A DNA stretch of 64,000 nt from an uncultured Bacillales bacterium. Lineage in GTDB: Bacteria > Bacillota_I > Bacilli_A > RFN20 > CAG-826. The translations under genes were made by a program, and so were the position numbers. Where the stretch lies: positions 1,557-65,556 of the forward strand of contig CAMJWS010000001.1 of assembly GCA_946409515.1 (NCBI GenBank). Direction: 5' to 3'. The notes beneath the pieces are model-generated. The model had not been told where the DNA came from and did not search any database. It worked only from the letters and a program-made list of their open reading frames with translations. Of this stretch, positions 36,938-59,267 are shown in pieces (positions within the stretch are counted from its first letter, which is position 1; each line of letters begins with the position of its first letter).

Positions 36938-39010
36938 TTATGCCGTCCTAACTCCATTAATGGAATAGACGTATGTTTGGCTGTCAAATTCAGGTGTGTA
37001 GGAGCCATATTGCGTATATAAGAATGCTCTACCAAAGATGATTAATTCATCACCAATTTGTAAATCATCAACACTTTGCCATTTAGTAGAACCACCTTGT
37101 GTTCTCTTGAGGTAATAAATCATGATTTCATAGTTTGTTCCTTTGTCACCAATGTAGACCTTAAACATATCGCCTTGTGAAGAAACAGAAGCAGCTTGTC
37201 TAGTGACAACGCCTTTGTAATACATGGAAACGGATCCTGATTGAGAAACATTATCGCCTGGATGTGCGTTGGCGTATTCAAGAGCCTCTTTGATTGTTCT
37301 TGGATCTTCAAGAGTACCTTCGTGACCAGTTTGGACTGGCTTTGTACCATAACCACCATCAGCGATAAAGCGGTTTAATAAATCTCTAGCGTAGATACCA
37401 CCATTCTCGAATTTAGCGATCACATTTAATGATGTGTTGTAATCGACTGTATATGTATCAGTTACTAAATAATATGTTGTGGAATCATCAATATTGTCTT
37501 TGATAGATTCGCCATAACTTGACCACTTTGTGAAGTAGTTACTACTACCAGTGATGAACTGTGTGCTTCTTAAATTTCTACCAGAGATAGAGCATAAAGA
37601 AACATCGTTATCAAATGGGAATAAATTGTATAAATTAGCATAAGTTACATCGCCTTGAGGTAGGTTAGAACCACGACAGGAAATAAAACCACCACCAAGG
37701 ATGAGATTATATTGGCTTCCCCATGTGGTATTACCATAGTCATAATATAAATCAGCAACCTTTTGCTTTAATTCAGATGAGTATCTATTGGATTCGTTAT
37801 AGCCACTGACTTCATAAGCAAATTCATATTTGTCCTTATACTTATTAAAGATAGCTTTAGTATCAGCATCTTCCACATAACCACGATATGGGGAAGAACT
37901 TTCGTATAAGTCATAGCTCACAGGAGTATTAACACTATAAGTGTTGTTTGCTAAGTTTAAATCAACAGTGATACGGTAAAAGTTTTCATTATTGGCATTA
38001 GATTGAACGTGATATACACCGCCTTCATCAACTTCCACATATTTCTTATGTGTATGACCTTCTAAGACTAAATCGACATACTTACCAGTACTAAGTTCTG
38101 TATCATAGTCACCATCATTATAAGAGCCATGGATAGAATAGATAATGAAATCACATTTTTCTTGGTTTCTTAATCTAGTGGCTTCCGCTTTAACAAGGTT
38201 TGTTAAAGTGTAGCCAGTAGCGAAAGTAATATCCGCTACTTTGCTTCTAGAAACAGATGAGTAGCAATTGCCAATCGCACCGATAACACCAATCTTAGCG
38301 TCACCACGTGTAAATGTTGTAGATGGAGATAAATAGTTCACTCTTTGGTTATTGCTTTTATATAGAACGTTAATTCCTAATGTTGGGAAATTAGCGAGCT
38401 CTTGATTACTAGCGATATATTCTTGTCCCCAGTCAAATTCATGGTTACCAACCGTCATAGAGACGAAGTCCATGGAATTCATCCATTCGGTAACTAGGTT
38501 ACCGCGTGTAAGACCACTTTCTACTGATCCTTGCCACATATCACCTTGAGAAATAAAGATTGATGTTTCTGGTGTAGAAATCTCTTTTAATAAAGTTGTG
38601 GTTTTAGTTAAGCCAAGACCCTTGCCTTGAGTGTCAATGACATTACCATGAGTATCATTAAAGGCAAAAATGTCTAAAGACACATTGCTTGGTCTTTGGC
38701 TAGAAGATGAACTTGAAGAAGATGATGAAATACTAGTAGATGAGCTACTAGATGCACTGCTGCTTGAAGAACTGCTAGAAGAAATACTACTAGTAGAACT
38801 TGATGAGTTTTTAGAACTACTTGCACTAGAGGAAGAGCTTTTAGAACTACTACTTGATGTAGAGCTGTCTTTTATGCTGGATGATGTACTTGTGTTAGAT
38901 GATGGGACACTACTAGACGAGTTGCCTCCGCTCATCTTTGAAAGGTCACAAGCACTGACGCACATTGCCATAAGCATAAATGCGCTTATTAAGATGCTTT
39001 TCTTTTTCAT
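36938..39010 (-). CDS. Ser-rich lipoprotein calcineurin-like metallophosphoesterase (5'-nucleotidase / 2',3'-cyclic phosphodiesterase family).
   Basis: Lipobox VSAC. Metallophosphatase motifs DTHGN, GNHEFDWG and GHTHKKY. C-terminal 5'-nucleotidase-like substrate domain. Confidence 0.65.
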   Translation of the reverse strand: MKKKSILISAFMLMAMCVSACDLSKMSGGNSSSSVPSSNTSTSSSIKDSSTSSSSSKSSSSSASSSKNSSSSTSSISSSSSSSSSASSSSSTSISSSSSSSSSSQRPSNVSLDIFAFNDTHGNVIDTQGKGLGLTKTTTLLKEISTPETSIFISQGDMWQGSVESGLTRGNLVTEWMNSMDFVSMTVGNHEFDWGQEYIASNQELANFPTLGINVLYKSNNQRVNYLSPSTTFTRGDAKIGVIGAIGNCYSSVSRSKVADITFATGYTLTNLVKAEATRLRNQEKCDFIIYSIHGSYNDGDYDTELSTGKYVDLVLEGHTHKKYVEVDEGGVYHVQSNANNENFYRITVDLNLANNTYSVNTPVSYDLYESSSPYRGYVEDADTKAIFNKYKDKYEFAYEVSGYNESNRYSSELKQKVADLYYDYGNTTWGSQYNLILGGGFISCRGSNLPQGDVTYANLYNLFPFDNDVSLCSISGRNLRSTQFITGSSNYFTKWSSYGESIKDNIDDSTTYYLVTDTYTVDYNTSLNVIAKFENGGIYARDLLNRFIADGGYGTKPVQTGHEGTLEDPRTIKEALEYANAHPGDNVSQSGSVSMYYKGVVTRQAASVSSQGDMFKVYIGDKGTNYEIMIYYLKRTQGGSTKWQSVDDLQIGDELIIFGRAFLYTQYGSYTPEFDSQTYVYSINGVRTA

Positions 39011-40379: not shown

Positions 40380-41837
40380 GTGAAAGTAACAGATATAGAA
40401 TTGTGTAACGTTCTATCGCGGAGACTACATATGGGATACACTAAGGAAGATATCCACCAAATTGTGGAGAAACAAAGAGAGTTTTTCTTATCTAATCAAA
40501 CTCTCGATATTTCGTTTAGAAAACAACAATTAATCAAATTAAGAAATGCAATTTCCTCTAATCAAGAAGTCTTAGAAAAGGCTTTATTTGAGGACTTAGG
40601 TAGAAGTGACGCTGAAGCATATTTCTGTGATATCGGTGATGTCATCATGGAAATCAATGAGTGCATACACGGCCTTAAGAAATGGAGTAAACCTGAAACT
40701 CATTTCTCAGGACTAGCGTGTTTTCCTAGTATCTTCACAAAAGTGTATAAGATGCCATATGGTGTGTCTTTAATCATCTCTCCATTTAACTTCCCTGTTT
40801 TATTATCAATTGGTGTATTAGCCGCCTCTATTGCAGGCGGTAATACCGCCTTAATTAAGGCGAGTAGTAAATCAAAAGCCACTACTCAGGCTTTAAAAGA
40901 AATCATCGCTAACACTTTTAGTGAGAACTATATAACTGTTATTGATGGCGGTCATGATGTTGCAGATTATTGTTTAGAAGAACGTGTTGATAAGATTTTC
41001 TACACTGGTTCCCCTAATGTTGGTAAACACGTCATGGAAATGGCCAGTAAAAACCTCACTCCTGTTACTTTGGAATTAGGTGGGGAAACTGGTAACTGGT
41101 GTATTGTTAGGAAGGACGCTAATCTCAAAGATGCAGCAAGAAAAATCGCCTTCTTTAAGATTTGTAATTCTGGACAAATTTGTATCAATATTAACCAAGT
41201 AGCAGTCGCCGCTGAAGTAGCGGAACAATTCGTTAGCGAATTGAAAAACGAGATTATTCGTCAAATTGGTGAGCAAGCTTATCTTAATCCAGAATATCCA
41301 AAGCTAATCGCTCAAAGAGCGTATGAAAACATCGCTAATGAGGCTGAGCAATATCGCGATAGGATCGTCTTTGGTGGAGAAGGTGATATCAATACTTTGA
41401 AGTATTCTCCAACCATTATCTATCCTGTGGATATTGATGAACCGATTGTAAATCATGAAATATTTGGACCACTGCTTCCTATCGTTCCTTTTAGCGATAA
41501 CGAAATTGATAAACTATTAGACACTATTGCTAGAAGAGAACATGGTTTAGCCTTCTATATTTTCACCAAGAATAAGAAATGGGCTAAGAAAGTCATGCAA
41601 ACACAACAATATGGTGGCGGTTGTATTAATGAAGTCTGTTTACACCTCATGGTTAAAGGTGTGCCATTTAATGGTACAGGCCATTCCGGTATGGGTGCCT
41701 ACCATGGGGTATGGGGATTTAGAGAATTCACTCATCCTTCTACCGTCTTATTTGGTAAAACAAAAATGAATCTCTCTTTGAGAGAACATCCATATACTCC
41801 AAAGAAAAAGAAACTATTTTCTAAGTTTCTTAAATAG
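40380..41837 (+). CDS. Aldehyde dehydrogenase family protein (class-3-like; probable start at the Met at 40431).
   Basis: ELGGETGNWCIV glutamate region, FFKICNSGQICINI catalytic-Cys region, and GGGCINEVCLH near the C-terminus. Confidence 0.8.
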   Translation: MKVTDIELCNVLSRRLHMGYTKEDIHQIVEKQREFFLSNQTLDISFRKQQLIKLRNAISSNQEVLEKALFEDLGRSDAEAYFCDIGDVIMEINECIHGLKKWSKPETHFSGLACFPSIFTKVYKMPYGVSLIISPFNFPVLLSIGVLAASIAGGNTALIKASSKSKATTQALKEIIANTFSENYITVIDGGHDVADYCLEERVDKIFYTGSPNVGKHVMEMASKNLTPVTLELGGETGNWCIVRKDANLKDAARKIAFFKICNSGQICININQVAVAAEVAEQFVSELKNEIIRQIGEQAYLNPEYPKLIAQRAYENIANEAEQYRDRIVFGGEGDINTLKYSPTIIYPVDIDEPIVNHEIFGPLLPIVPFSDNEIDKLLDTIARREHGLAFYIFTKNKKWAKKVMQTQQYGGGCINEVCLHLMVKGVPFNGTGHSGMGAYHGVWGFREFTHPSTVLFGKTKMNLSLREHPYTPKKKKLFSKFLK

Positions 41838-42560
41838 GTGAACGTTATGATGCCATTAATTCCAATTATTATTCTTATTTGCGCTGGTGCGGTTTTGCTC
41901 TTCTTCTTCTTAAAAGAAAAAGTTAAAGCTTATTCCGTTAAAGCAGTGATGTTTAAAGCGGCAGCTTCTATTTGCTTTGTCGCGGTCGCTGCGATTTCGT
42001 TATTCTTTAAAGGCCACCACGCTTTATCCATCTTTGTGACTTTAGGCCTATTTTTCGGCGTTTTGGGCGACATTTGGCTTGATTTCAAATATGTTTTCAA
42101 GGAACACGATAAGATCTTCACATACGCAGGTTTTATTATGTTTGCTTCAGGACACGCTTGTTACATCAGTGGTATGTTCTTAGAATTCTTTAATAATCAA
42201 AATCCTTTATATATTATTCTTCCACTTATCGGAGGTTTATTAATAAGTGTGTGCAATCTCTTTATTGCTAAACCAATGAAATTAGATTATAGCGGTTATA
42301 AAGTCATTAGTATCATCTATGGTTTCTTCTTATTCAGTATGACTTTAACCGCTTTAAGTTTGTCCATTATGATGGGCTTTAATAACGCTACTTTAATCAT
42401 GATTCTGGCAGGTGGCTTATTATTCACTATTTCTGATTTGATTTTAAGCGGTACATATTTTGGTAAAGGAAAAGAAAGACCGGTTGATATTATTACCAAC
42501 TCGGTCACTTATTACTTAGCACAGTTTGTCATCGCTTTTGCGATATTCTTTGTTGCCTAA
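41838..42560 (+). CDS. Multi-TM membrane protein, possibly YhhN/lysoplasmalogenase-like.
   Basis: Seven to eight hydrophobic helices. The start codon is 1 nt after the ALDH stop. Confidence 0.35.
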   Translation: MNVMMPLIPIIILICAGAVLLFFFLKEKVKAYSVKAVMFKAAASICFVAVAAISLFFKGHHALSIFVTLGLFFGVLGDIWLDFKYVFKEHDKIFTYAGFIMFASGHACYISGMFLEFFNNQNPLYIILPLIGGLLISVCNLFIAKPMKLDYSGYKVISIIYGFFLFSMTLTALSLSIMMGFNNATLIMILAGGLLFTISDLILSGTYFGKGKERPVDIITNSVTYYLAQFVIAFAIFFVA

Positions 42561-43535
42561 TTATTTATAAGAGACAACAGTCATGCTATAGAATCTCTTT
42601 TGTTTAATGAGAACGTCTTTGACTTGTCCTTTGTTTGAGTTATGAATCTTAATATAGTTTGTGTTTGTTTTCGCTAGGATATATGTCTTAGTTGTACTTT
42701 CCACTTGAGTTTTACCATAGGTAACTGGTTCATCTGCGGTGAATGGATAATTAGTGTCGGTATCAAATTGAACATATTTGATTTTGCCACTTGAAACACG
42801 GATATGTAAGTAAGTACCAACATAGAAACGGAATGGGTCGGTATATTGTTGAAAAGAGTACTGTGTTCCTGGATCATATTCCATAGTGACAATGCCACAT
42901 GTCCAAAGGATGTGTTCTGGATTCTTTTCACTTGGTCCTGACATTGTTTCAGCGTTAGCCGCGGTGAAATCAATCTTAGTGGTGACTGTTTCTTTGCCGT
43001 TATCTTCTAATGATTCATATGTTTCTTCAACCACAACACCACTTCTAATGATTTTGTAGTAAACAGGATATGGTGTACTACTATCACCAGCAAGTTCTGG
43101 TTGACCGTTTTTTTCATAATAGGTGTAATGACCACCGGCGATAACGGTATCGCCTTGCTGGACATCATTTTGACCAGCGTTAGCGTCGATTGTGCCTGAA
43201 TAGACTTGCACAGATGCTGTGCCACCTTGGTCCACTAAATAGGAACTGTAGGAGCTGTATTTTTGATTAAAGTATGGTTTTTCACTTACGATGCCTTTGA
43301 TATAAATCGTTTCAGTAGAATAGGATGTGTTCTTACCAATAATAGCGATAGCTTCCGCGATGGTATATGGATTAGTGAGTGTGCCTTTTGGACCACTGAC
43401 GGATTCTTCACTAGGATTTGAAATAGAAGCACTGTTATCAGTATTTGTATTTGTGTTATTTGCACTATTAGATTTAGAGTTAGCGCAAGCCGTTAATGCA
43501 AGAACGGCGGCGACTAATAATAATTGTTTTTTCAT
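42561..43535 (-). CDS. Lipoprotein of unknown function.
   Basis: Signal plus lipobox LALTAC, followed by a Ser/Asn/Thr-rich linker. Confidence 0.5.
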   Translation of the reverse strand: MKKQLLLVAAVLALTACANSKSNSANNTNTNTDNSASISNPSEESVSGPKGTLTNPYTIAEAIAIIGKNTSYSTETIYIKGIVSEKPYFNQKYSSYSSYLVDQGGTASVQVYSGTIDANAGQNDVQQGDTVIAGGHYTYYEKNGQPELAGDSSTPYPVYYKIIRSGVVVEETYESLEDNGKETVTTKIDFTAANAETMSGPSEKNPEHILWTCGIVTMEYDPGTQYSFQQYTDPFRFYVGTYLHIRVSSGKIKYVQFDTDTNYPFTADEPVTYGKTQVESTTKTYILAKTNTNYIKIHNSNKGQVKDVLIKQKRFYSMTVVSYK

Positions 43536-43593
43536 AATTTGTTACCTCGATAAATTATATTTTTATTTATTAATAAATCAACTAAAAATCCCT

Positions 43594-44211
43594 TTATTTA
43601 AGGGATTCTTTATTATTTGCTTTCTTCTTTTCTTTTTCGAGATTGTTATTATAGATTCTCACTAGTGTTGGAAGATTATATTTTAAGATGAACGCTGGTA
43701 GAACAATTAATATCGCATTGATAATCGCCACTGGTAAACAAATTGTTAACCAGATATTAGACTGACCAGTATACATCTTCCAGTCTAATAAGATGACTAG
43801 GAATGCCGCTGGAACACTGAATAAGTGAATAGCGACACCATATCTAGCTTCTAAAATGAAACGTGAAACATATTCATTATCAAATGGATTAGCGAATTGG
43901 TTCTTATGAAAACCAGTAAAGCTTCCTAATTCAGGAACATGTTCTTTCCATCTATTTACTTTTAAGAATTTATAAAATTTGAATTCTCTTGGTCCTGTTT
44001 TAAAGATGCCTTTATCTTTTGAAAACCATTTTTCGGGCATCCTGCGAACGATAAAGGCCACCAGACCATCAATTAATACACTGATAATCACTAAGGCAAC
44101 GGTGAAAATAATGTATAACCAAAACTTATCCTGATATAAAGGATTAAAGAAACAGTTTAGGGTGATCACCACCGCCATAGAGATGAGAATAATAATTGAA
44201 TACAATAACAT
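43594..44211 (-). CDS. CrtO-like (glycosyl-4,4'-diaponeurosporenoate acyltransferase family) small membrane protein.
   Basis: TM-flanked core FKTGPREFKFYKFLKVNRWKEHVPELG resembles the CrtO-family motif (..RE.K.Y..L.I..WK..VP). Its start overlaps the stop of the upstream GT8-acyltransferase gene by 1 nt. Confidence 0.4.
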   Translation of the reverse strand: MLLYSIIILISMAVVITLNCFFNPLYQDKFWLYIIFTVALVIISVLIDGLVAFIVRRMPEKWFSKDKGIFKTGPREFKFYKFLKVNRWKEHVPELGSFTGFHKNQFANPFDNEYVSRFILEARYGVAIHLFSVPAAFLVILLDWKMYTGQSNIWLTICLPVAIINAILIVLPAFILKYNLPTLVRIYNNNLEKEKKKANNKESLK

Positions 44212-46031
44212 TATTTTTCCTCTGGTAAGTATTCTAATGGTACACCATATACTTGTTCATAGATTTCTTTAAAGCGTTGCTCGTTAACTTCTTTCATATG
44301 GTTAACGTTTTCTTGTTGAGATAAATCTTCATCTGGATAGATTGGCTTTAAGAAATGTAATGTATAGGCTTGGATAGGAGCACCGTCTTTATCAAGTTTA
44401 TCAGTATCACGCATGGTGATAAATGTTGGAATGATAGGAACATTATTTTTGCTAGCAAAAATGAAAGCACCTTGTTTTAATGGCTTTGGTTTACGATAAT
44501 TCCACCACATTGATTGTTCTGGATAAATAAGGATATAGTTGCCTTTTTTAAGGATGGTAGAAATAGAGGCATATAAGTCTCTTAACACTGTTGGGTTAGT
44601 GGCTAATGGTAAGGTATAGCAGTTTCTTAAGAAGAAACCGTATAAACCAGGCATTGTGTAATTACCTTCTCTAATGATTTTGAAGAGCTTTTTAGTTCTT
44701 GCGTATTTCTTCATCGCTAAATGGAGAGGAATACTATCAAATGGTGAGAAGTGATTAGCAGTGATAATCGCCCCACCTTTCACACCCTTAAGGTTTTCAA
44801 CACCTTCATAGCCGTCAATAACGATATGGCCTTTTTTAATCATGTGTTTGAAATAACGATGGGAATAGTAATTAGCCCACATGGTCTTAATCTTACTAGT
44901 CCATTTCTTTCTTAAGTAGTCAACATCTCCTGGCATAAGATGATTGAATGGAGGATCGTTTTCCACGTCCACATCAAAACGTCTACTTCTTTCAAGAGCG
45001 TTGATTTTATCAACGATAGCTTGTCTTTCGTCACTGAGTTTAGGAGCGATTGGTTCATCGTTTCTAATTCTTTGGTCAATAGAAGTAACGCGAACTTTTT
45101 CCGGTTCACCATTGATCTTATCGTGGTATTCTTGGGCTTTAGAAGCTTCTAGGTCGCAGAAGGCTTTAACACCAGCAACACCTTGAAGAATCTTATCGGT
45201 GACTTCTTGAGGAATAGCATCTCTATTCTTAAGAATCATGTCTTTAACACCAGCGAGTTCAGCGTATTTGAAGAATTCTTCTTCATACATGATGTTCTTT
45301 AAGTTCCATGGTTTGAACATTAAGTTATAGTGAATTAAAGATGGATTTTCCATTCTTTCACCAAGTGGCATAACATTCCACTTTGGATCAATGAGAAGAG
45401 CTTGACCTTTACATAAGTAGTTAAAGACATCTTGGTCTTGCGCAACTTTGAAAGTAACTTTCTTTAATAAACCAATAAATCTTCTTTCTAAACCAAAATC
45501 TCTAAGTTTCTTAAAGTTCATCAATAAGACACCAGCATTGAAATATTTGGTGTGGTCCATTTCAATGACTTTTTCAACGTAGTTAGAGAACTCACTATAG
45601 AGTTGGACAGAAGCATCAGGAATAGCACCCACTAGGTTATTACCTAAATCTGTGAAATATAGTTTAGCGATATCATCTCTAACGACAATATCACTATCGA
45701 GATATAAACCCTTATTAAAAAGTGGGAATAAGTTAGGTAAGAATAAACGGTAGTATGTTGTAATTGTATAGTAGTCACGAACGTCTAACTTCACGGATAA
45801 AGAATGCACTTTTGCGGTGACGTCCATAAACCAAATAAAAATATTTTTGTTGTTTTGATATTTACGTAAGATCTTCTTACTCTTACAGGATAAGCCGTCA
45901 TGGAGAACGGTTAAGTGATATGTATATTTCTTGCTAGCGTGTCTAACAATACTAGCAATAGTTACTGAAAGATATGGGATATAGTTATCATCCACTGTGA
46001 AGAAGAGACGTACAACTTTTCGTCTAGCCAT
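44211..46031 (-). CDS. Bifunctional fusion: N-terminal family-8 glycosyltransferase (GT8) plus C-terminal PlsC-type lysophospholipid acyltransferase.
   Basis: GT8: FTVDDNYIPYLSVTIASI...LDSDIVV...NAGVLLMNFKKLR (DxD plus the GT8 N(A/S)GV motif). Acyltransferase: ITANHFSPFDS (the H(X4)D box) and IYPEQSMWWN. Confidence 0.7.
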   Translation of the reverse strand: MARRKVVRLFFTVDDNYIPYLSVTIASIVRHASKKYTYHLTVLHDGLSCKSKKILRKYQNNKNIFIWFMDVTAKVHSLSVKLDVRDYYTITTYYRLFLPNLFPLFNKGLYLDSDIVVRDDIAKLYFTDLGNNLVGAIPDASVQLYSEFSNYVEKVIEMDHTKYFNAGVLLMNFKKLRDFGLERRFIGLLKKVTFKVAQDQDVFNYLCKGQALLIDPKWNVMPLGERMENPSLIHYNLMFKPWNLKNIMYEEEFFKYAELAGVKDMILKNRDAIPQEVTDKILQGVAGVKAFCDLEASKAQEYHDKINGEPEKVRVTSIDQRIRNDEPIAPKLSDERQAIVDKINALERSRRFDVDVENDPPFNHLMPGDVDYLRKKWTSKIKTMWANYYSHRYFKHMIKKGHIVIDGYEGVENLKGVKGGAIITANHFSPFDSIPLHLAMKKYARTKKLFKIIREGNYTMPGLYGFFLRNCYTLPLATNPTVLRDLYASISTILKKGNYILIYPEQSMWWNYRKPKPLKQGAFIFASKNNVPIIPTFITMRDTDKLDKDGAPIQAYTLHFLKPIYPDEDLSQQENVNHMKEVNEQRFKEIYEQVYGVPLEYLPEEK

Positions 46032-46210
46032 AAATAAAAGCCTCCTTTAGGCAGTAACAATAATAACAAATGACCATATAGAATTGATTCTATTTGTCTC
46101 TTGCAGTCTCTACTTAATGAGTCTCAAAAAGTAGAACTGCCAAAAAACTATAGTATAGTCAAACTTTTTAGTCAAAGGTCTACCTGTTAACACTTTATTA
46201 CAATAGTAAC

Positions 46211-46283
46211 ATATGCGCATTATGCACGCATATAGATAAACCGCCATTTTATGTTGACATAATCAGCTTTTTGTCGTTTAATA
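46211..46283 (+). promoter_or_regulatory. Candidate TetR operator palindrome plus sigma-70-like promoter upstream of the tetR-ABC operon.
   Basis: ATATGCGcattatgcaCGCATAT (7-bp arms) at 46211-46233. TTGACA, a 17-bp spacer, then TTTAAT at 46255-46283. Confidence 0.3.
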
Positions 46284-46325: not shown

Positions 46326-46898
46326 ATGCCACCAAGAGCAAAGTTCACTAAAGAAGAAATAATTAATGCCGGACTAGAGATATTAAGGACTTCTGATTTA
46401 TCACACGTTACAGCGCGTGAAATCGGAAAATATTTAAAGAGTTCCGCTCGTCCAATCTTCACCACTTTCACTAATATGGGTGAAGTTATTGAAGGGATTA
46501 GAGTCAAGGCTCGCGAGATTTATGATGAGTATGTTCAAGATGGATTGAAGCAAGATTTAGCCTTTAAGGGTGTCGGTCAAGCTTATATTCTTTTTGCTAT
46601 TAAAGAGCCAAAGTTATTCCAACTACTCTTTATGAGAAAACTAGAAAATGACATTGGTGTTAACAAGATCCTTCCTGAAATAGACGATAACTATCAAGCG
46701 ATATTAGATTCTATCACTAACAACTATCCAGTTAGTAAAGATGACGCTGTTATCTTATATCGTCACTTATGGATATATTCACACGGGATTGCCACATTAT
46801 GTGCTACCTCAATGTGTAAGTTCACAGGCGAAGAAATCGGTATCATGTTAACCGATGTCTTTAAATCATTATTAAAAGAAAGATTAATGGGTAAGTAA
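46326..46898 (+). CDS. TetR/AcrR-family transcriptional regulator.
   Basis: N-terminal HTH FTKEEIINAGLEILRTSDLSHVTAREIGKYL. Confidence 0.8.
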   Translation: MPPRAKFTKEEIINAGLEILRTSDLSHVTAREIGKYLKSSARPIFTTFTNMGEVIEGIRVKAREIYDEYVQDGLKQDLAFKGVGQAYILFAIKEPKLFQLLFMRKLENDIGVNKILPEIDDNYQAILDSITNNYPVSKDDAVILYRHLWIYSHGIATLCATSMCKFTGEEIGIMLTDVFKSLLKERLMGK

Positions 46899-46899
46899 G

Positions 46900-47589
46900 A
46901 TGATCGAGATTAAAAATATTACTAAATATTACGGTAAAGGCGAAAGCCGTTTTAAAGCCTTAGATGATGTCTCTATGAATATCAAGGATGGAGAATTCTT
47001 GGTTATTTTAGGTGCTTCAGGCAGTGGCAAGTCCACTTTCTTAAATGTCATTTCTGGACTTGAAACTCTTGATGATGGAGAAGTGATTTATAACGAAGAA
47101 CATCTTGAAAAGATGAACGAAAAAGAATTAACCAAGTTCCGTAGAGATAATGTTGCTTTCATCTTTCAACAATACTATCTCTTACCACATTTAAACGTGG
47201 AAAAGAATGTGAAGATGGGCGCTGATTTAGGCGATAAAGATTACCTCAAATATATTGAAGCTGTTGGCTTACATGATAAACGTAAAAAGCATCCTAGTGA
47301 ATTAAGCGGGGGCGAACAACAAAGAGTCGCTATTGCTAGAGCGCTTTCTAAAAAACCAAGAGTTCTTTTCTTAGATGAGCCAACTGGTGCCTTAGATGAA
47401 AAGACTGGTAGAAGTGTCTTAGATTACATCATTAAGTTACAAGAAAAAGAAAAGTTCACAATGATTATGGTGACACATAACGCTAATATTGCAGAAACTG
47501 CAGACCGCACTATCAAGATGAATAGCGGTAAGATTGTTGATATCTACGATAATCTTAATAAGAAATCTGCTTATGAGATTGGATGGTAA
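46900..47589 (+). CDS. ABC transporter ATP-binding protein (MacB/LolD-like).
   Basis: Walker A GASGSGKST, signature LSGGEQQRVAIARA, Walker B LFLDEPTGALD. Confidence 0.85.
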   Translation: MIEIKNITKYYGKGESRFKALDDVSMNIKDGEFLVILGASGSGKSTFLNVISGLETLDDGEVIYNEEHLEKMNEKELTKFRRDNVAFIFQQYYLLPHLNVEKNVKMGADLGDKDYLKYIEAVGLHDKRKKHPSELSGGEQQRVAIARALSKKPRVLFLDEPTGALDEKTGRSVLDYIIKLQEKEKFTMIMVTHNANIAETADRTIKMNSGKIVDIYDNLNKKSAYEIGW

Positions 47590-47592
47590 TTT

Positions 47593-48729
47593 ATGATTGT
47601 CAGTTTAAAAGATGGTTTTAAATTAATCGGCATCTCCATCATGGCGTGTTGCGCTGTTTGTGTTTGCAATATGTTTTTAAATTTCCAAATCGATTTAAGA
47701 AGTGTTGCTAATCAAGTAGAAGCAGGACCCGCACAAGCCTTATACGATGCTTTTGTTAGTACATCTATTGTGTGCTGCGCTTGTTGTGGTGGTTGTATGC
47801 TTATCACTTCTGTGGTGATGCTATTCTTCTATATTAAGCATTATATTGATAGCCATTCTCGTGAGATTGGAATCTTAAAAGCTCATGGTTATTCTAATTT
47901 TAGAATATCAAGAGGATTTGCGATCTTCGCTATTAGCATTTTAGTGGGTTGTCTTGCTGGCTATTTATTATCATTTGCGATTATGCCTTTATTTTATGAA
48001 AAGCAAAATGATAATAATCTTTTGCCTCATATTCCAATGAATATCCATTGGTACATGATTGTCTTATTAATTATTGTTCCTACGGTCGTGTTTGCGTTTA
48101 TCGCTATTGGATATAGCGTTATCAAACTTAATCAACCAACGATTAATTTACTTAAAGGTATCACTAAACAAAAAGATAAATATACTGATGGAAAAGATAA
48201 AAAGAACTTTGTTAGTGAAATGAGAAGCTCAGTTTTAAAGAGCCGTAAAACACTTGTGTTTTTTATGATTTTGTCTTCATTCTGTTTCTCTTCTATGATT
48301 CAAATGTCCGCGAGTATGGATGAACTAGCGAGTGATATGATGGGCATTATGATTCTTATTATTGGTATTGTCTTAGCTTTCACCACTTTCTATATCGCCT
48401 TAACCACAGTGATACACGCCAATCAAAAGAATATTGCAATGATGCGTGTCTTCGGATATAGTGCGATGGAATGTAAAAGATCTGTTTTAGATTGCTATAG
48501 AATTCCAGCGTATATTGGCTTTGCTATTGGTACCGCTTATCAATTTGGTTTATTAAAAGTCATGGTCACTGTTGTGTTCGCTGATGTGGAAGGTGTCCCT
48601 GATTATCACTTTGATTGGCCAATGTTCTTCATTACTTTAGTGGCATTTATTGTCATATACGAAGGTGCAATGTTCATATACGGCTATCTCATGAAAAAGA
48701 TTCCATTAAAACAAATCATGGATGAATAA
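47593..48729 (+). CDS. ABC transporter permease, FtsX/MacB-type.
   Basis: TM1, an extracellular loop, then a three-TM FtsX module (GILKAHGYSNFRI...; MMRVFGYSAMECK...). Confidence 0.75.
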   Translation: MIVSLKDGFKLIGISIMACCAVCVCNMFLNFQIDLRSVANQVEAGPAQALYDAFVSTSIVCCACCGGCMLITSVVMLFFYIKHYIDSHSREIGILKAHGYSNFRISRGFAIFAISILVGCLAGYLLSFAIMPLFYEKQNDNNLLPHIPMNIHWYMIVLLIIVPTVVFAFIAIGYSVIKLNQPTINLLKGITKQKDKYTDGKDKKNFVSEMRSSVLKSRKTLVFFMILSSFCFSSMIQMSASMDELASDMMGIMILIIGIVLAFTTFYIALTTVIHANQKNIAMMRVFGYSAMECKRSVLDCYRIPAYIGFAIGTAYQFGLLKVMVTVVFADVEGVPDYHFDWPMFFITLVAFIVIYEGAMFIYGYLMKKIPLKQIMDE

Positions 48730-49944: not shown

Positions 49945-51012
49945 TTAAATAGAGTTGAATATTTCGTCAATTTTGCCTAATAGTTCAGTGTTTACCGCAC
50001 TACTTTTGTCTAAATCAATTGAAGCGATATATTGCTCTTTTATTTCGTCAGGTAATTTACCTTTATACTCTTTTCTTAAATCACTTAATCCCTTTTCATA
50101 TTCCCCTGTTAAAGTTTCTGCTTCTAAGGTTTTCCAAGGTGTTCCATGATGGATACCTTCTAACTTAATCGCAGTCACATTTTCATAATAATCGTTAACG
50201 ATATTGTCATATAGGGAATAGGTCTTATAAGGTACAGTTTTATCTTCTGTTCCGTGAATGATGACATATGGGATATCTGGATTGTTCTTGATGGCGCTTT
50301 CAGCGGATTGATGTACCTTAACACCCCAATGTAAGAACAAACCTAATTCAAATGCTGGTTTTGTTAGTATCATCGCTTTAGATGTATTAGCCTCAACAGA
50401 GCCATACATTAGTTCACTTGGAGTGTTATAAGCGGAGAATGAGGCCACCGCTTTGACACCATCAACCTTGTTAGAGGCCGTAACAGCCCCATAGGCGCCC
50501 CAGCTATGACCAATTAGGAAGATTGGTAAGTCTTTAGTTTTATCAAGCTCTTTGACCTTATTTACCGCACTTACAACACAGTTAGTGGATTCATATAGTG
50601 TTCTAATGCCTTTGCCAGTACTACGTCCGCATCCTGTCATATCAAAAGAGAAGACTGTATAACCATGAGTCGCATAGTAATCTTGCACTTGGGACATATT
50701 AGCGTCCGCAAGATTCATCACACCATGAGAAAATACGACGACTCCTTTAGGAGAAGGATTTTCATATAGATAACCAGTTAATGTTTCTTTACCACATGGG
50801 AAAGTCACTACTTCTCTATCTTTTAATGATTCATAATCAGCGCGACATTTTTGCACTCTGTAGAAGTCTTGCTCAAGTAAATCTAAATCACAGTTTCTAA
50901 CGTTGATAAAACCTTCAGTGGCCACGAGAACACCAATGATACCTAGACCAAAATAAAGAGTAACCGCTCCAATAAGAGAGCCGATGATAATCTTCTTAGC
51001 TTTTTTGTTCAT
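49945..51012 (-). CDS. Membrane-anchored alpha/beta-hydrolase (serine hydrolase).
   Basis: N-terminal TM, nucleophile elbow IGHSWG, and downstream Asp/His (IIHGTEDKTV; GIHHGTP). Confidence 0.7.
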   Translation of the reverse strand: MNKKAKKIIIGSLIGAVTLYFGLGIIGVLVATEGFINVRNCDLDLLEQDFYRVQKCRADYESLKDREVVTFPCGKETLTGYLYENPSPKGVVVFSHGVMNLADANMSQVQDYYATHGYTVFSFDMTGCGRSTGKGIRTLYESTNCVVSAVNKVKELDKTKDLPIFLIGHSWGAYGAVTASNKVDGVKAVASFSAYNTPSELMYGSVEANTSKAMILTKPAFELGLFLHWGVKVHQSAESAIKNNPDIPYVIIHGTEDKTVPYKTYSLYDNIVNDYYENVTAIKLEGIHHGTPWKTLEAETLTGEYEKGLSDLRKEYKGKLPDEIKEQYIASIDLDKSSAVNTELLGKIDEIFNSI

Positions 51013-52006
51013 TGATGATGACCTTTTGTGGGCGTTTATTAATGCTCTTAAGCACTAGTTCACTGATGAATAGTAATAAGACGGATGAAGCAATTGTAAA
51101 GACGTAGATGAGAATAGTTACTAACCACATTGGTTCAACCCACCTTGTAGTATTCATCGCTCCGCACATAAATGCTTGATTCATCAAATAGATGATTAAG
51201 GCTAATTTGTCAGTGTATTTGAATAACGATAATCCCTTGAACTTATTAAGAGGTTTAAGCGCCATTAACATAAAGAATAATGATGCCACACCAAAGGTGG
51301 TAACAATTATATTGTTAACAATATCGTGAAGATGTTTTAAGAAATAGGCATCGCCAAAGCTATATGTTTGGATAAGGATATATGCACCAATTGAGGCTAA
51401 TAGGATAAGCGTCCATAAGCCTAGCGCTTTGAAACTGAATTTCTCTTCTGGATTAGTGAACGTCTTAAACCATTTCTTACCAATGTAATAGCCAATGACA
51501 TAAGTTACCGCAATCATGGCTGGGCCAAAGAAGAAGCCAACCGCCACTTCAATAGCGATAACACTGACCACCGCCACAACACTCCACTTATCATTGCGTT
51601 GTAATACTGGAGTAATTAAATAGCAGACGAGGATGTAGGCTAGATAATAGTAGTTATCTACTTGAGTGATGATACGGCCACCATAGGCGCGATGAGTGGC
51701 AAACATCATCCAATCCCAACTATTATTGATAGCCATGTAAATAACATCCCAACTAGCAATAAAAGCCACCACTATTAAAGCGGGGATTAATAGTTTAATT
51801 AAATTACCAAGATAGAACTTCTTATTGTCGGTAATTAGTTTTTGAGAATACAAGAATCCTGATAAAGCAGTTAAACCTTGAACCCCTTTACTTAAAAGCA
51901 TTTCGTATGGAATCGCTCTAGCGTAAAGGATATAGAAAATATGGAATTGCAAGACACAAATCGTGGCGATAATTCTATATATAGAAATGTTATTAAATCT
52001 TTTCAC
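50996..52006 (-). CDS. Acyltransferase-3 family integral membrane protein.
   Basis: YRIIATICVLQFHIF N-terminal signature and ~10 TM helices. Confidence 0.6.
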   Translation of the reverse strand: MKRFNNISIYRIIATICVLQFHIFYILYARAIPYEMLLSKGVQGLTALSGFLYSQKLITDNKKFYLGNLIKLLIPALIVVAFIASWDVIYMAINNSWDWMMFATHRAYGGRIITQVDNYYYLAYILVCYLITPVLQRNDKWSVVAVVSVIAIEVAVGFFFGPAMIAVTYVIGYYIGKKWFKTFTNPEEKFSFKALGLWTLILLASIGAYILIQTYSFGDAYFLKHLHDIVNNIIVTTFGVASLFFMLMALKPLNKFKGLSLFKYTDKLALIIYLMNQAFMCGAMNTTRWVEPMWLVTILIYVFTIASSVLLLFISELVLKSINKRPQKVIINEQKS

Positions 52007-56709: not shown

Positions 56710-58455
56710 TCACAGCAGGCCGCGTTTTTTATCTTCTTCTTCTTGGAGCATGCGGAAATTAACTTTTCCGAGCATCGTTAATGGTAATTCATCTCTGAAT
56801 TCAATCTCAGTAGGAACTGACCATCTAATTAAATATTTACGACATGTTTCAAGTATTTTTTCTTTCATCGCGGTTTCGTCAAAGACCTTAGCCACCACAA
56901 AGACTTTTAAGGAGTTTTGTAATTTAGCGTCAGGAATACGAATCGCCGCACAAGCGGAAACTTCTGGCATTGATTCAATGAGTTGTTCGACTTCACTTGG
57001 GAAGACGGCAACACCAGAGACTTTCACCACTCTTTTTTTACGTTGCTTAAAGTAGATGAAATCATCTTCATCCATATAACCAAGGTCACCAGTATAGAGG
57101 TAACCATCTTTTAAACAGTTTTTAGTGGCTTCTTCATCTTGATAATAGCCAAGCATAATAGCCCCACTTTTAATAATGATTTCACCAAGTTCACCACGTG
57201 GTACTTCATTGCCTTGTTCATCCACAACTTTGAATGTTGCTTCAGGCATAGCTTTGCCTAATGAACCTTTACGATTAGCGTTAAAGGTGTTAACACAGTT
57301 AACAGCGATAGCCTCAGTTAAGCCATATCCTTGGAACAAACGACATTTAGAACCTGCTTGTTCCATAGTCTTATTAAAGCGTTCTTCTAAGTCACTTGGC
57401 ATAGAGTCACCACCACAGAAGCAGCAATGTAAATACTTTAAGTTTTTATTATTAACAAATGTTGGTTCTTGAAGTAGCTTTTCATAAATTGTTGGCACAC
57501 CACACATACAGGTGAGCTTAGTGGCATTCATTGCCTTCACCACTTTCGTGGCTTTAAACTTTGGAATAAGGATGGAAGAGAATGAGTTTACTAAAGGTGC
57601 ATGCATAGTCATACATAAACCAAAGCCGTGGAAGCTTGGTAAAACACTGAGCATTTTATGGCCAATCATCTTATCCTTATCAACCGCAAGGAAAGCATAA
57701 GCATATTGTGAAATAAAGTTAAAAGCATAGTCACTCAAACAGATGGTTTTTGGTTTACCGGTTGTGGAACCACTGTGTAACAACACAGAACATCTATTTT
57801 TATCCGCTTTAGCGGTAGGAACTTCTTTACCAGTTGGTTTCAATTGATAAGTATATTTAAAGCCATCGAATTTAAATCTCGCTGGCATCTTGCCTAACTT
57901 CTTTCTAATTCTAAAGTTCATGAAATTGTGATAGATGAATTTACTCATTAAAGGTAAATCATCTTCAATACGTGTAACGTATACTTGATCAGCAATTTCA
58001 CGGTATTGTTTCACTTCTTTAGCAATTCTTTGTTCAAAAAGAAAGGCCACTTTGGTGTGAGTCTTATCCATGATTTGTTTCACTTGGTTAAATGGAGTGA
58101 ATGGATGGATTAAGTTAGACGTCGCACCAATCTTATTAATAGCGTAAAACAAGACGATTGTTTCTGGGATATTAGGTTGAGCGATAACGACAACGTCGTT
58201 TTCTCTAAGACCTAATCTGTTATATAAAATATCCGCGGTCATATCGACACGCTTTAAGAGTGTTTTAAAATTGATCCTCTTGCCTTCATAATAGATGGCT
58301 AAATCATGAGGAGCTTTATTAGCAGCCTGTCTGAAGGCTTCATACATTGTATATTCTGTCATCATTTGATAAATAACCCCACTAACGAGAGAATGCCAAA
58401 GATAACAAGAACGTGGGTACCATAGATGAGTAAGGTATGACGACCAACAAAGCAA
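56710..58455 (-). CDS. AMP-dependent acyl-CoA synthetase/ligase (long-chain-fatty-acid-CoA ligase-like); the true start is probably MMTEY at 58365.
   Basis: AMP-binding motif LHSGSTTGKPKT, plus YGLTE and the C-terminal lid GYLYTGDLGYMDEDDFIYFKQRKK. The annotated N-terminal 30 codons would overlap the upstream gene. Confidence 0.8.
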   Translation of the reverse strand: MLCWSSYLTHLWYPRSCYLWHSLVSGVIYQMMTEYTMYEAFRQAANKAPHDLAIYYEGKRINFKTLLKRVDMTADILYNRLGLRENDVVVIAQPNIPETIVLFYAINKIGATSNLIHPFTPFNQVKQIMDKTHTKVAFLFEQRIAKEVKQYREIADQVYVTRIEDDLPLMSKFIYHNFMNFRIRKKLGKMPARFKFDGFKYTYQLKPTGKEVPTAKADKNRCSVLLHSGSTTGKPKTICLSDYAFNFISQYAYAFLAVDKDKMIGHKMLSVLPSFHGFGLCMTMHAPLVNSFSSILIPKFKATKVVKAMNATKLTCMCGVPTIYEKLLQEPTFVNNKNLKYLHCCFCGGDSMPSDLEERFNKTMEQAGSKCRLFQGYGLTEAIAVNCVNTFNANRKGSLGKAMPEATFKVVDEQGNEVPRGELGEIIIKSGAIMLGYYQDEEATKNCLKDGYLYTGDLGYMDEDDFIYFKQRKKRVVKVSGVAVFPSEVEQLIESMPEVSACAAIRIPDAKLQNSLKVFVVAKVFDETAMKEKILETCRKYLIRWSVPTEIEFRDELPLTMLGKVNFRMLQEEEDKKRGLL

Positions 58456-59243: not shown

Positions 59244-59267
59244 GATGTATTTTTATTTTTATAAGAA

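Follow-up and report, generated by a model that had tools for sequence, protein, structure and literature searches.

A glycosyltransferase–acyltransferase fusion coupled to a CrtO-like gene in a rumen bacterium: a candidate module for acylated glycolipids

What might a bacterium make with a sugar transferase and an acyltransferase joined in one polypeptide, followed at once by a CrtO-like membrane protein? Genes of this kind form a two-gene operon, fusion gene first and CrtO-like gene second, on the minus strand of the window analysed here, a stretch of 64,000 nucleotides from a rumen bacterium. The initial annotation of the locus had read it as a module for acylated glycolipids with an architecture not previously described. 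Sugar-acylated glycolipids, acyl-Hex2-DAG and its relatives among them, are long-known membrane lipids of Gram-positive bacteria, serve as lipoteichoic-acid anchors and influence immune recognition. The cassette presents a concrete and widespread candidate for the acylation of the sugars of such lipids. The two genes, the parts of the fusion and the sites around them are located as follows.

46147..46175, minus strand: promoter-like site upstream of the fusion gene, TTGACT-17-TATAGT, 10/12 consensus matches
46041..46048, minus strand: ribosome-binding site AAAGGAGG of the fusion gene, read from the sequence, ending 9 nt ahead of the ATG
44211..46031, minus strand: GT8-acyltransferase fusion gene, 606 aa, no transmembrane segment
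45303..46007, minus strand: GT8 (GT-A fold) catalytic domain of the fusion, residues 9-243, from Pfam
45042..45101, minus strand: flexible inter-domain linker of the fusion, residues 311-330, low pLDDT
44214..45041, minus strand: acyltransferase module of the fusion, residues 331-606
44418..44807, minus strand: PF01553 core of the acyltransferase module, residues 409-538, from Pfam
43594..44211, minus strand: CrtO-family membrane protein gene, 205 aa, 4 transmembrane helices
43584..43610, minus strand: terminator-like hairpin with T-run, overlapping the stop codon of the CrtO-like gene
43581-43554: separate promoter-like site ahead of the next gene

The open reading frame at 44211-46031 carries both Pfam domains above their cut-offs, which bears out the single 606-aa polypeptide of GT8 and acyltransferase parts named by the initial annotation; the domain searches, whose failure for either half had been named there as grounds for dropping the fusion, returned Pfam matches for both. 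The claimed 1-nt overlap with the next gene is likewise present, the two reading frames having nucleotide 44211 in common in a TAATG stop/start overlap with GAGGA before it. The promoter-like site upstream is a candidate: it is a consensus match only, and sites of this kind are no more numerous in the region than expected from shuffling. Terminator-like sites number 7 in the region against 2.1 expected, and the hairpin at 43584..43610 closes the two-gene operon. The downstream gene, which encodes a 324-aa lipoprotein, was rejected as a member of the operon, since a promoter-like site of its own follows the terminator-like hairpin and the gene is missing from two relatives (L003 and L004) that are 93-95 % identical. 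No riboswitch or known RNA was found in the operon leader.

Both genes are real and conserved rather than chance reading frames, since the fusion has 1,382 homologous protein clusters. In species-representative genomes of Firmicutes from gut and rumen, 565 stretches match the fusion, which is accordingly not rare; the species that carry it run to the hundreds. Carriers indicated by the genome scan include Faecalibacillus (L018), Mageeibacillus (L014) and relatives of Clostridium sp. CAG:440 (L057). The claim of an undescribed architecture appears to hold for the searchable literature, as full-text searches returned nothing on it, but in genomes the architecture is far from unusual. The names it bears in databases are generic, '1-acyl-sn-glycerol-3-phosphate acyltransferase' at NCBI and, for some members, 'lipopolysaccharide biosynthesis glycosyltransferase' at JGI.

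The N-terminal half belongs to glycosyltransferase family 8. Residues 9-243 match Glyco_transf_8 (PF01501; E 1.3e-45, 156.4 bits against a cut-off of 24.3, Pfam), and their DXD motif D112-S-D114, the D199-Q200-D201 triplet and H234 with K240-P241-W242 are invariant in 48 homologs at identities down to 51 %. In alignment with LgtC, D112-S-D114 falls on D103-I-D105 and D199-Q200-D201 on D188-Q189-D190, which places these residues on the LgtC metal and donor site; H234 and K240-P241-W242 align with 'IHYAGENKPW' of WbbM. Fold comparison with Foldseek gave WbbM at E 9e-20 and LgtC at a target-normalised TM of 0.74, and the top 50 matches were all GT8 or GT8-like GT-A enzymes (LARGE1, UGGT and XXYLT1 among them). 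Since the DXD, D-Q-D and H..KPW motifs align with those of LgtC and WbbM, the domain is expected to carry out retaining transfer from a UDP-hexose. The NCBIfam model for LPS galactosyltransferases scored 58.9 bits on the fusion against a cut-off of 461.

The C-terminal half belongs to the Acyltransferase family PF01553 (residues 409-538, E 1.6e-12, 47.8 bits against a cut-off of 23, Pfam). The H(X4)D motif ascribed to it is found as H427-FSPF-D432 and is invariant in 48 homologs; the wider blocks N426-H427-x4-D432, E455-G456-N457, F467..R469, P504-E505 and V531-P532..P535 vary little or not at all. By their motifs, both halves of the fusion are catalytically intact and strongly constrained. 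Ahead of the core lies an N-terminal extension composed of a helix at 334-348, an invariant acidic FD-x-DVE-x-DPP and a basic aromatic helix at 377-399. The latter carries a net charge of +5 and probably serves as a membrane docking element of the fusion, which has no transmembrane segment and reaches a maximum 19-residue hydropathy of 1.09.

The acyltransferase half is remote from enzymes of known function. Its sole sequence similarity in the PDB is to PlsC of T. maritima, at a non-significant E of 1.5; blocks III-IV align with that structure (5KYM), the alignment being weak, and NCBIfam TIGR00530 (AGP_acyltrn) scored 28.4 bits on the fusion, below its cut-off of 102.95. As the acyltransferase half is so divergent from PlsC, it cannot be given the substrate class of the latter. 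It belongs to a small subfamily, of 112 representatives at E <= 1e-30, which keeps company with glycosyltransferases. Distant stand-alone relatives (32-34 % identity) adjoined GT8 or GT2 genes in all three look-ups, one subfamily member (P0414) is fused to a GT2 in place of the GT8, and minimal pairs of GT8 and acyltransferase genes exist without any membrane partner.

The two halves are joined by a linker at which the fusion also comes apart. The AF2 model of the fusion has a mean pLDDT of 87.5 and a pTM of 0.56, the mutual orientation of its two domains being unreliable; pLDDT falls below 50 at residues 314-322 and 325-327. At 14 loci the GT8 and the acyltransferase are two adjacent separate genes, split exactly at this low-pLDDT linker, the separate reading frames matching the fusion as far as residue ~300 and again from residues ~318-333. 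Glycosyltransferase and acyltransferase are genetically coupled, fused here and adjacent elsewhere in the subfamily, and the occurrence of both fused and split forms supports a functional coupling of the two halves.

The 205-aa partner was rightly called CrtO-like. Its residues 59-188 match CrtO (PF18927, glycosyl-4,4'-diaponeurosporenoate acyltransferase; E 4.7e-16, 59.7 bits against a cut-off of 27.3, Pfam), hhalign to the verified S. aureus CrtO gave a probability of 96.6 % (E 7e-10), and on these profiles the protein can be taken as a true homolog of S. aureus CrtO. Its conserved polar residues are W88, K89, K103, E121, H129 and S132; W88, K89, E121, H129 and S132 are invariant family-wide, S. 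aureus CrtO included, and the transmembrane prediction and positive-inside rule place the conserved set on the cytoplasmic side. According to its source annotation, S. aureus CrtO esterifies the glucose of a lipid glycoside; to our knowledge, its biochemical mechanism was never established. The model of the CrtO-like protein is moderate (pLDDT 74) and leaves the conserved loop unmodelled, and a fold search with it turned up nothing meaningful (E 0.44 at best, TM < 0.4 throughout). A carotenoid pathway was considered and rejected: crtM, crtN, crtP and crtQ are neither present in the window nor conserved nearby in related loci, and no squalene/phytoene synthase or desaturase domain occurs among the 32 window reading frames scanned.

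The genomic-context survey suggested in the initial annotation ties the two genes closely. Of the 23 loci with a CrtO-like gene, 21 have it directly next to the fusion, and at all 18 junctions checked the spacing between the stop codon of the fusion and this gene is -4 to +3 nt. Around the 23 CrtO-like genes the fusion is the sole conserved neighbour, and in Bacilli-type loci the CrtO-like gene is the only conserved neighbour of the fusion. In some 55 Clostridia loci the CrtO slot is occupied by a soluble PlsC-type acyltransferase without transmembrane segments, accompanied by a further GT8 in 49 loci and by an LPG_synthase_TM (MprF flippase) domain in 17. This is a non-orthologous replacement by a known acyltransferase family together with a lipid-flippase-type domain; divergent CrtO genes hidden in these loci were sought by profile HMM search and rejected. 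Genes for polysaccharides, teichoic acids or accessory Sec do not recur as neighbours across 82 loci. Neither the window nor the set of conserved neighbours yielded carotenoid, polysaccharide or protein-glycosylation genes, and the window contains no primary glycolipid synthase. Large surface proteins are also encoded in the window. The comparative context supports a functional module of fusion and partner. The earlier proposal of an acylated-glycolipid module has gained from the coupled pair, the fused and split forms, the Clostridia replacement and the adjacency to glycosyltransferases.

On balance, the operon would seem to encode a "glycosylate-then-acylate" module that works at the cytoplasmic face of the membrane and yields an acylated glycolipid, a reading we consider probable if far from certain. 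The fusion would dock on the cytoplasmic face of the membrane through helix 377-399, and its LgtC-like retaining GT8 domain would move an alpha-hexose from a UDP-sugar onto a lipid-linked acceptor, most likely a (glycosyl)diacylglycerol-type glycolipid. The tethered PlsC-superfamily domain would then esterify a head-group hydroxyl with a fatty acyl chain taken from acyl-ACP, acyl-CoA or acyl-phosphate. The translationally coupled CrtO-like protein might act as a second O-acyltransferase in the same leaflet, with the W-K...E-x7-H motif as its candidate active site, and the product would be a sugar-acylated glycolipid of the acyl-hexosyl-DAG kind. We infer the lipid substrate, the order of steps, the identity of the sugar and acyl donors, the placement of the acyl chain on the sugar and the catalysis by the CrtO-like protein; the membrane-lipid acceptor and the acylation of the transferred sugar follow from the lipid-type partners CrtO, PlsC-type acyltransferase and LPG_synthase_TM. 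Known glycolipid synthases belong to GT4, GT28, GT2 and GT21, and among characterised GT8 enzymes none is known to us to produce diacylglycerol glycolipids, which is a point against this reading. If it is true, the CrtO family extends beyond carotenoid pigments, and the generic 'PlsC' and 'LPS glycosyltransferase' annotations on > 1,000 protein clusters stand to be corrected.

One alternative concerns the role of the CrtO-like protein, which could instead be a non-enzymatic anchor, scaffold or substrate-presenting subunit of the same glycolipid module, with a single acylation. A partner with four transmembrane helices beside a fusion with none would suit such a role, as would the 1:1 co-production suggested by the stop/start coupling, and the CrtO family, with no solved structure or demonstrated mechanism and only a moderate model here, leaves room for it. 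We nevertheless consider it unlikely, although the strongest of the alternatives. The soluble acyltransferase in the Clostridia CrtO slot favours an equivalent catalytic role over anchoring; minimal pairs of GT8 and acyltransferase dispense with a membrane partner; the S. aureus crt operon (crtOPQMN) contains no PlsC-type enzyme; and E121, H129, S132 and W88-K89 stay invariant even in S. aureus CrtO, as active-site residues typically do. A different departure concerns the acceptor. The GT8 domain might glycosylate a small soluble molecule, such as glycerol(-phosphate), glycerate or another sugar, to which the two acyltransferases would add fatty chains, yielding a glycolipid or sugar-ester lipid with no phosphatidic acid or diacylglycerol precursor. 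Sugar transferases and acyltransferases number 1+2 in Type A and 2+2 in Type B, which fits glycosyl and diacyl products; some PlsC-superfamily enzymes (GPATs) acylate soluble glycerol-3-phosphate; no dedicated primary glycolipid synthase lies nearby; and a flippase-like partner would export the finished lipid. The absence of transmembrane segments from both the GT8 and the acyltransferase modules also agrees with it, but peripheral glycosyltransferases acting on membrane lipids, PimA for example, lack them as well. The soluble acceptor is without support, the minimal pairs with a single acyltransferase would give a mono-acyl product only, and we know of no such bacterial pathway with these families, so that this route appears somewhat less likely again. 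Slightly more speculative still is its fullest form, a hitherto undescribed way for gut and rumen Firmicutes to make membrane glycolipids, in which a soluble glycoside from the GT8 would become a lipid through two successive O-acylations, one PlsC-type and one CrtO-like, independently of phosphatidic acid and diacylglycerol, and the CrtO family would be general small membrane sugar O-acyltransferases with a W-K...E-x7-H active site and no specificity for carotenoids.

Two further readings take the module away from acylated glycolipids altogether. The GT8 domain might decorate a wall polysaccharide, teichoic acid or surface protein whose glycan is then O-acylated. The closest solved GT8 enzymes do have targets of this sort, LPS/LOS or O-antigen for LgtC and WbbM and a serine-rich glycoprotein for GlyE, the JGI name of some members points the same way, and the surface proteins of the window would offer targets. 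The hosts, however, are Gram-positive-type Firmicutes without LPS, the conserved partners are of lipid type (CrtO, PlsC-type and MprF flippase domain) and the genes expected around such a target are not among the conserved neighbours. Acylation of polysaccharides and proteins uses Acyl_transf_3, MBOAT or LbH enzymes, we know of no PF01553 enzyme that acylates either, and a non-lipid target is quite improbable. Least credible of all is that the C-terminal half is a housekeeping lysophosphatidate acyltransferase, PlsC, fused incidentally. The NCBI name and the presence of HX4D and blocks II-IV are what speaks for it; it was rejected on the score below the NCBIfam cut-off, the lack of significant similarity in the PDB and the small subfamily linked to glycosyltransferases wherever looked up.

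Comparison with known systems places the proposed glycolipid module between several precedents. In both sequence and fold the N-terminal half comes closest to LgtC, a Neisseria alpha-1,4-galactosyltransferase, and to the GT8 domain that is part of WbbM (E 7.9e-24, TM 0.74, 28-30 % identity), but these enzymes extend LOS or O-antigen glycans in Gram-negatives and have no acyltransferase domain. PlsC shares with the fusion the superfamily PF01553, HX4D and blocks II-IV. Its N-terminus forms a two-helix motif, and the helix just ahead of the fusion's acyltransferase core could be an interfacial anchor of a similar kind. The fusion differs from it in block III (PEQSMWWNY against PEGTR), in the acidic FDxDVExDPP extension, which is unique to the fusion, and in the constant link of its acyltransferase to glycosyltransferases.

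In the CrtQ/CrtO steps of staphyloxanthin formation in S. aureus, the product of a glycosyltransferase is acylated on its sugar by CrtO, according to source annotation. The window protein and S. aureus CrtO both have W-K, E-x7-H and S, at 20 % identity; the former has an extra N-terminal transmembrane hairpin, and its companion glycosyltransferase is a GT8, whereas CrtQ is a GT2. Unlike the staphyloxanthin genes, the cassette also includes a PlsC-type acyltransferase, and it occurs in anaerobic Firmicutes of rumen and gut. The CruC/CruD pair of green sulfur bacteria combines a glycosyltransferase with a PlsC/LPLAT-type acyltransferase esterifying the glucose of a carotenoid glucoside, and would be a precedent for sugar acylation of the PF01553 type; it differs from the fusion in its carotenoid substrate, separate genes and phototroph host.

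Full-text literature searches brought up no gene for hexose acylation of Gram-positive glycolipids and no non-carotenoid CrtO homologs. Acyl-Hex2-DAG anchors are common in Gram-positives, and a review names no acyltransferase for the sugar-acylation step (PMC5107633). In C. difficile, the glycolipid operon hexSDF brings together a glycosyltransferase acting on lipids, an enzyme that modifies the head group and a protein consisting of the MprF flippase domain only (PMC10128005). The Clostridia version of the GT8-acyltransferase module has a flippase-like gene of the same kind, unlike the Bacilli-type cassette of the window, which has none. HexS is annotated as an MGDG-synthase-type glycosyltransferase, and the modification in that operon is de-N-acetylation, not acylation.

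In mycobacteria, where PimA and PatA take part in phosphatidylinositol-mannoside synthesis, the genes for the two are adjacent. PatA is of the HtrB/LpxL-type family and not PF01553, and PimA is GT4/GT-B where the fusion is GT8/GT-A; the two are separate proteins of an actinobacterial host, act on a PI-based lipid and have no CrtO-like partner. PatA palmitoylates the 6-OH of mannose in PIM1/PIM2 (PMC4792965). As in the module proposed here, a membrane lipid first receives a sugar from a peripheral glycosyltransferase without transmembrane segments, and this sugar is then esterified by an acyltransferase, both enzymes working at the cytoplasmic leaflet, where the fusion and its CrtO-like partner would also act.

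The genes of the fusion and its CrtO-like partner form a bicistronic operon on the minus strand. Both open reading frames lie exactly where the initial annotation had placed them, and the one-nucleotide overlap it described is borne out: nucleotide 44211 is common to both in a TAATG stop/start, with GAGGA ahead of the overlap. The joining of a GT8 glycosyltransferase to an acyltransferase, which it had left to stand or fall by domain searches of either half, is upheld, since both halves match Pfam above the cut-offs, as does the CrtO-like partner.

Features of the operon and its products
44211-46031, minus strand: gene of the 606-aa fusion (ORF call)
43594-44211, minus strand: gene of the 205-aa CrtO-like partner (ORF call)
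46175-46147, minus strand: candidate promoter-like site, TTGACT-17-TATAGT (consensus match)
ahead of the fusion ATG, minus strand: ribosome-binding site AAAGGAGG (sequence read)
43610-43584, minus strand: hairpin with a T-run, overlapping the stop codon of the CrtO-like gene
42561-43535, minus strand: gene of a 324-aa lipoprotein, directly downstream of the operon, with a separate promoter-like site
fusion residues 9-243: Glyco_transf_8 (Pfam E 1.3e-45, 156.4 bits, cut-off 24.3)
fusion residues 409-538: Acyltransferase, PF01553 (Pfam E 1.6e-12, 47.8 bits, cut-off 23)
partner residues 59-188: CrtO, PF18927 (Pfam E 4.7e-16, 59.7 bits, cut-off 27.3)

No Rfam elements were found in the operon region. 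A near-perfect palindrome, TATATGCGTGCATAATGCGCATATG, occupies 46210-46234, upstream of the promoter-like site in a 294-nt divergent intergenic region, and the leader contains two further inverted repeats (46109-46135 and 46075-46096). The divergent genes (46326-48729, plus strand) encode a TetR-family regulator, an ABC ATPase and an FtsX-type permease. The palindrome is possibly the operator for this regulator and could link exporter regulation to the lipid operon. The 324-aa lipoprotein has no match in Pfam. Its gene is found in the window and in L001, one of the loci that carry fusion relatives, and is absent from the 93-95 % identical L003 and L004, which marks it as a recent insertion or loss. 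Convergent to the operon, an aldehyde dehydrogenase gene (PF00171, 251 bits) and a YhhN-family membrane protein gene (PF07947, 82 bits) abut stop to start at 40380-42560 (plus strand), and the pair also adjoins the cassette in L001, L003, L004 and L050. YhhN has lysoplasmalogenase-like relatives, which liberate fatty aldehydes, so the pair could be a plasmalogen-turnover cassette.

Several further genes for acyl transfer lie elsewhere in the window: an Acyl_transf_3 (PF01757) membrane O-acyltransferase gene overlapping an alpha/beta-hydrolase gene (49945-52006, minus strand), and an AMP-binding (acyl-activating) enzyme, an HGSNAT-type membrane acetyltransferase and another Hydrolase_4 (56710-60167). 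A single 3,999-aa ORF (6886-18885, minus strand), mostly BspA-type leucine-rich repeats (PF13306, 1,410 bits, 21 stretches) with a Listeria-Bacteroides repeat, encodes a giant surface protein. A 690-aa lipoprotein (36938-39010, minus strand) has metallophosphatase and 5'-nucleotidase C-terminal domains after a very long poly-serine linker (about 90 residues). At the window edge lies a 413-aa GIY-YIG / NUMOD homing-endonuclease-like ORF (131-1372, minus strand), and the adjoining 676-aa ORF gives weak, sub-threshold domain matches only.

Two alignments of full-length homologs (15 and 48 sequences, 51-83 % identity) show the catalytic signatures of both halves of the fusion as invariant or nearly invariant: D112-x-D114, D199-Q200-D201, H234 and K240-P241-W242 in the GT8 half, and N426-H427-x4-D432, E455-G456-N457, R469, E505 and P532/P535 in the acyltransferase half. 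At residue level, D112 and D114 fall on the metal-binding D103 and D105 of LgtC, and D199-Q200-D201 on LgtC D188-Q189-D190. In Foldseek, the N-terminal half resembles WbbM (E 9e-20) and LgtC (TM score 0.74 normalised to target). The AlphaFold model (mean pLDDT 87.5) is confident inside each domain, drops below pLDDT 50 at residues 314-327 and has a pTM of 0.56, at which the inter-domain orientation is unreliable; on these grounds it fits two separately folding domains with a flexible tether between them. The acyltransferase half alone finds no match among PDB sequences, and as a profile it retrieves only T. maritima PlsC over blocks III-IV (E 1.5, not significant). Its 28.4 bits on the NCBIfam PlsC model are far under the cut-off of 102.95. 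The lack of a significant PDB sequence relative and the sub-threshold score lead us to place this half in the PlsC superfamily as a divergent protein distinct from PlsC itself. We found no transmembrane segment in the fusion (maximum 19-residue hydropathy 1.09); a helix directly ahead of the acyltransferase core (377-399, net charge +5, aromatic-rich) is a plausible interfacial anchor.

The partner has four hydrophobic helices. Among 13 orthologs, Lys+Arg means are 15.7 in the long loop (55-121), 6.8 in the C-terminal tail and 0.4 and 0.7 in the two short loops; under the positive-inside rule these counts predict a cytoplasmic location for the long loop and tail. Its candidate active site is predicted to face the cytoplasmic leaflet, the side on which the soluble fusion is also located. 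The S. aureus CrtO reference, whose exact look-up match is 'glycosyl-4,4'-diaponeurosporenoate acyltransferase [Staphylococcus aureus]', reaches 84.6 bits against the CrtO model of Pfam, and profile comparison relates the partner family to it with 96.6 % probability (E 7e-10, 20 % identity). The invariant polar residues of the partner are N19, W88, K89, K103, E121, H129 and S132, and W88-K89, E121-x7-H129 and S132 are also kept in S. aureus CrtO. The Pfam match, the profile comparison and these common residues identify the partner, at the level of sequence, as a true CrtO homolog, though a distant one, that has an additional transmembrane hairpin at its N-terminus. Its AlphaFold model is moderate (pLDDT 74), leaves the conserved loop 89-109 unmodelled and finds no structural relative among PDB entries (best match E 0.44).

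Most of the functional argument is carried by comparative context. Calling ORFs in 82 loci and clustering the neighbours revealed two architectures, one Bacilli-like and including the window (Type A), the other from Clostridia (Type B). The sole conserved neighbour of the fusion in Type A is the CrtO-like gene, present in 23 loci and directly downstream in 21 of them; in L081 it is immediately upstream, and in L020, a locus with a split fusion, it sits close by on the opposite strand. From fusion stop to CrtO-like start, all 18 junctions checked span -4 to +3 nt. Type B loci (about 55) encode, in this order, a stand-alone GT8, the GT8-acyltransferase and a second soluble PlsC-type acyltransferase with conserved blocks N-H-T-x3-A-D and P-E-A-H; 17 of them have an LPG_synthase_TM (MprF flippase-domain) gene upstream. 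Profile HMMs including S. aureus CrtO detect no CrtO-like genes in Type B loci. Of 55 sequences of the second acyltransferase (for example L023:8366-9160 and L078:7872-8648), at least 95 % have H(X5)D spacing instead of the canonical H(X4)D. Fourteen loci carry the fusion as two adjacent genes, with the break between fusion residues ~300 and ~318-333, which coincides exactly with the low-confidence linker. Other recurrent neighbours are housekeeping genes (ABC exporter, sigma factor, peptidase U32, prfB). The neighbour survey showed no polysaccharide or protein-glycosylation indicators, and the 32 ORFs scanned in the window include no carotenoid genes.

An exhaustive search with the acyltransferase half delimits a subfamily of modest size (112 representatives at E <= 1e-30, 397 at E <= 1e-10) of ~600-aa fusions and 260-300-aa stand-alone proteins. 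Coupling to glycosyltransferases holds across it: all three distant stand-alone members (32-34 % identity) abut glycosyltransferase genes, in the orders GT8-acyltransferase, GT8-GT8-acyltransferase and GT8-acyltransferase-GT2. Two members are alternative head-group-modifying architectures, P0414 (L083:643-2718) fused to a GT2 (Glyco_tranf_2_3) in place of GT8 and P0388 to a class-I methyltransferase.

Among the candidates scored, 1,382 homologous 90 % protein clusters were found, and nearly all of the top 120 have both domains. Source names are few and generic ('MAG: 1-acyl-sn-glycerol-3-phosphate acyltransferase [Bacilli bacterium]', 'lipopolysaccharide biosynthesis glycosyltransferase'). At least 565 stretches encode a fusion relative in a scan of one genome per species. 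The nearest among the matches listed is a rumen 'Bacilli bacterium' MAG (95 % identity), followed by Erysipelotrichaceae and Bacillales MAGs and then many gut Clostridia at 42-47 %; the identical protein occurs with the same neighbours in two ENA metagenome assemblies. The 90 % clusters mix adjacent-gene products, with 203-205-aa CrtO-like proteins inside the cluster of the 606-aa fusion and S. aureus CrtO (165 aa) under a 497-aa phytoene-desaturase-family representative, probably the product of a neighbouring carotenoid gene. This mixing probably arose artefactually, through read-through or merged gene calls, and bears on cluster sizes.

The evidence shows joint selection on a sugar transferase and a fatty-acyl transferase for concerted action, with a second acyl-transferring component, from either of two unrelated families, alongside them. 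The most economical model, which we hold with slightly more belief than doubt, is a cytoplasmic-face module that would add an alpha-hexose to a membrane glycolipid, the head group then being O-acylated once or twice; the lipid substrate, reaction order, donors, acylation position and catalytic role of the CrtO-like protein are inferred. The acylated-glycolipid module of the initial annotation gains support from comparative context, its substrate and acylation position being conjectural. That the CrtO-like protein serves only to anchor a fusion devoid of transmembrane segments is rather doubtful, because a soluble acyltransferase takes its position in Clostridia and the invariance of its own polar residues extends as far as the S. 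aureus protein.

De novo assembly of an acyl-glycoside lipid from a soluble acceptor would match both the stoichiometry of one glycosyltransferase to two acyltransferases and the absence of transmembrane segments, but is without direct support, and we consider it unlikely. The closest GT8 structures suggest a wall polysaccharide or glycoprotein as the target, a reading made quite improbable by lipid-type partners and the lack of such a gene context. Least credible is a housekeeping PlsC: some database names imply it, but the acyltransferase falls under the family threshold and fails the context test.

All domains of the fusion and partner, then, come from known families (GT8, PlsC superfamily, CrtO), and the chemistry inferred for the glycolipid module is of a known kind. 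Sugar acylation has precedents in PatA, which transfers palmitoyl onto the 6-OH of mannose in PIM1/PIM2 (PMC4792965), and in S. aureus CrtO, whose database annotation is acylation of glucose in a lipid glycoside; the result would not astonish a lipid biochemist. Three features appear new: the covalent joining of GT8 to a PlsC-type domain, the obligatory presence of a CrtO-family membrane protein beside it in a setting without a carotenoid pathway, and the way in which CrtO-type and PlsC-type proteins can replace each other as second acyltransferase. The searchable literature yielded no description of any of the three, in keeping with the earlier remark that the architecture had not been seen described; in sequence databases it is not rare, only unstudied and generically annotated. 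The C. difficile hexSDF glycolipid operon (PMC10128005) encodes a lipid-flippase-type domain of the same kind as the Type B Clostridia loci. Acyl-Hex2-DAG, with a third acyl chain on a hexose, is common in Gram-positive bacteria (PMC5107633), and that review does not mention the acyltransferase for hexose acylation. The cassette is a concrete and widespread candidate for this unassigned enzyme step.
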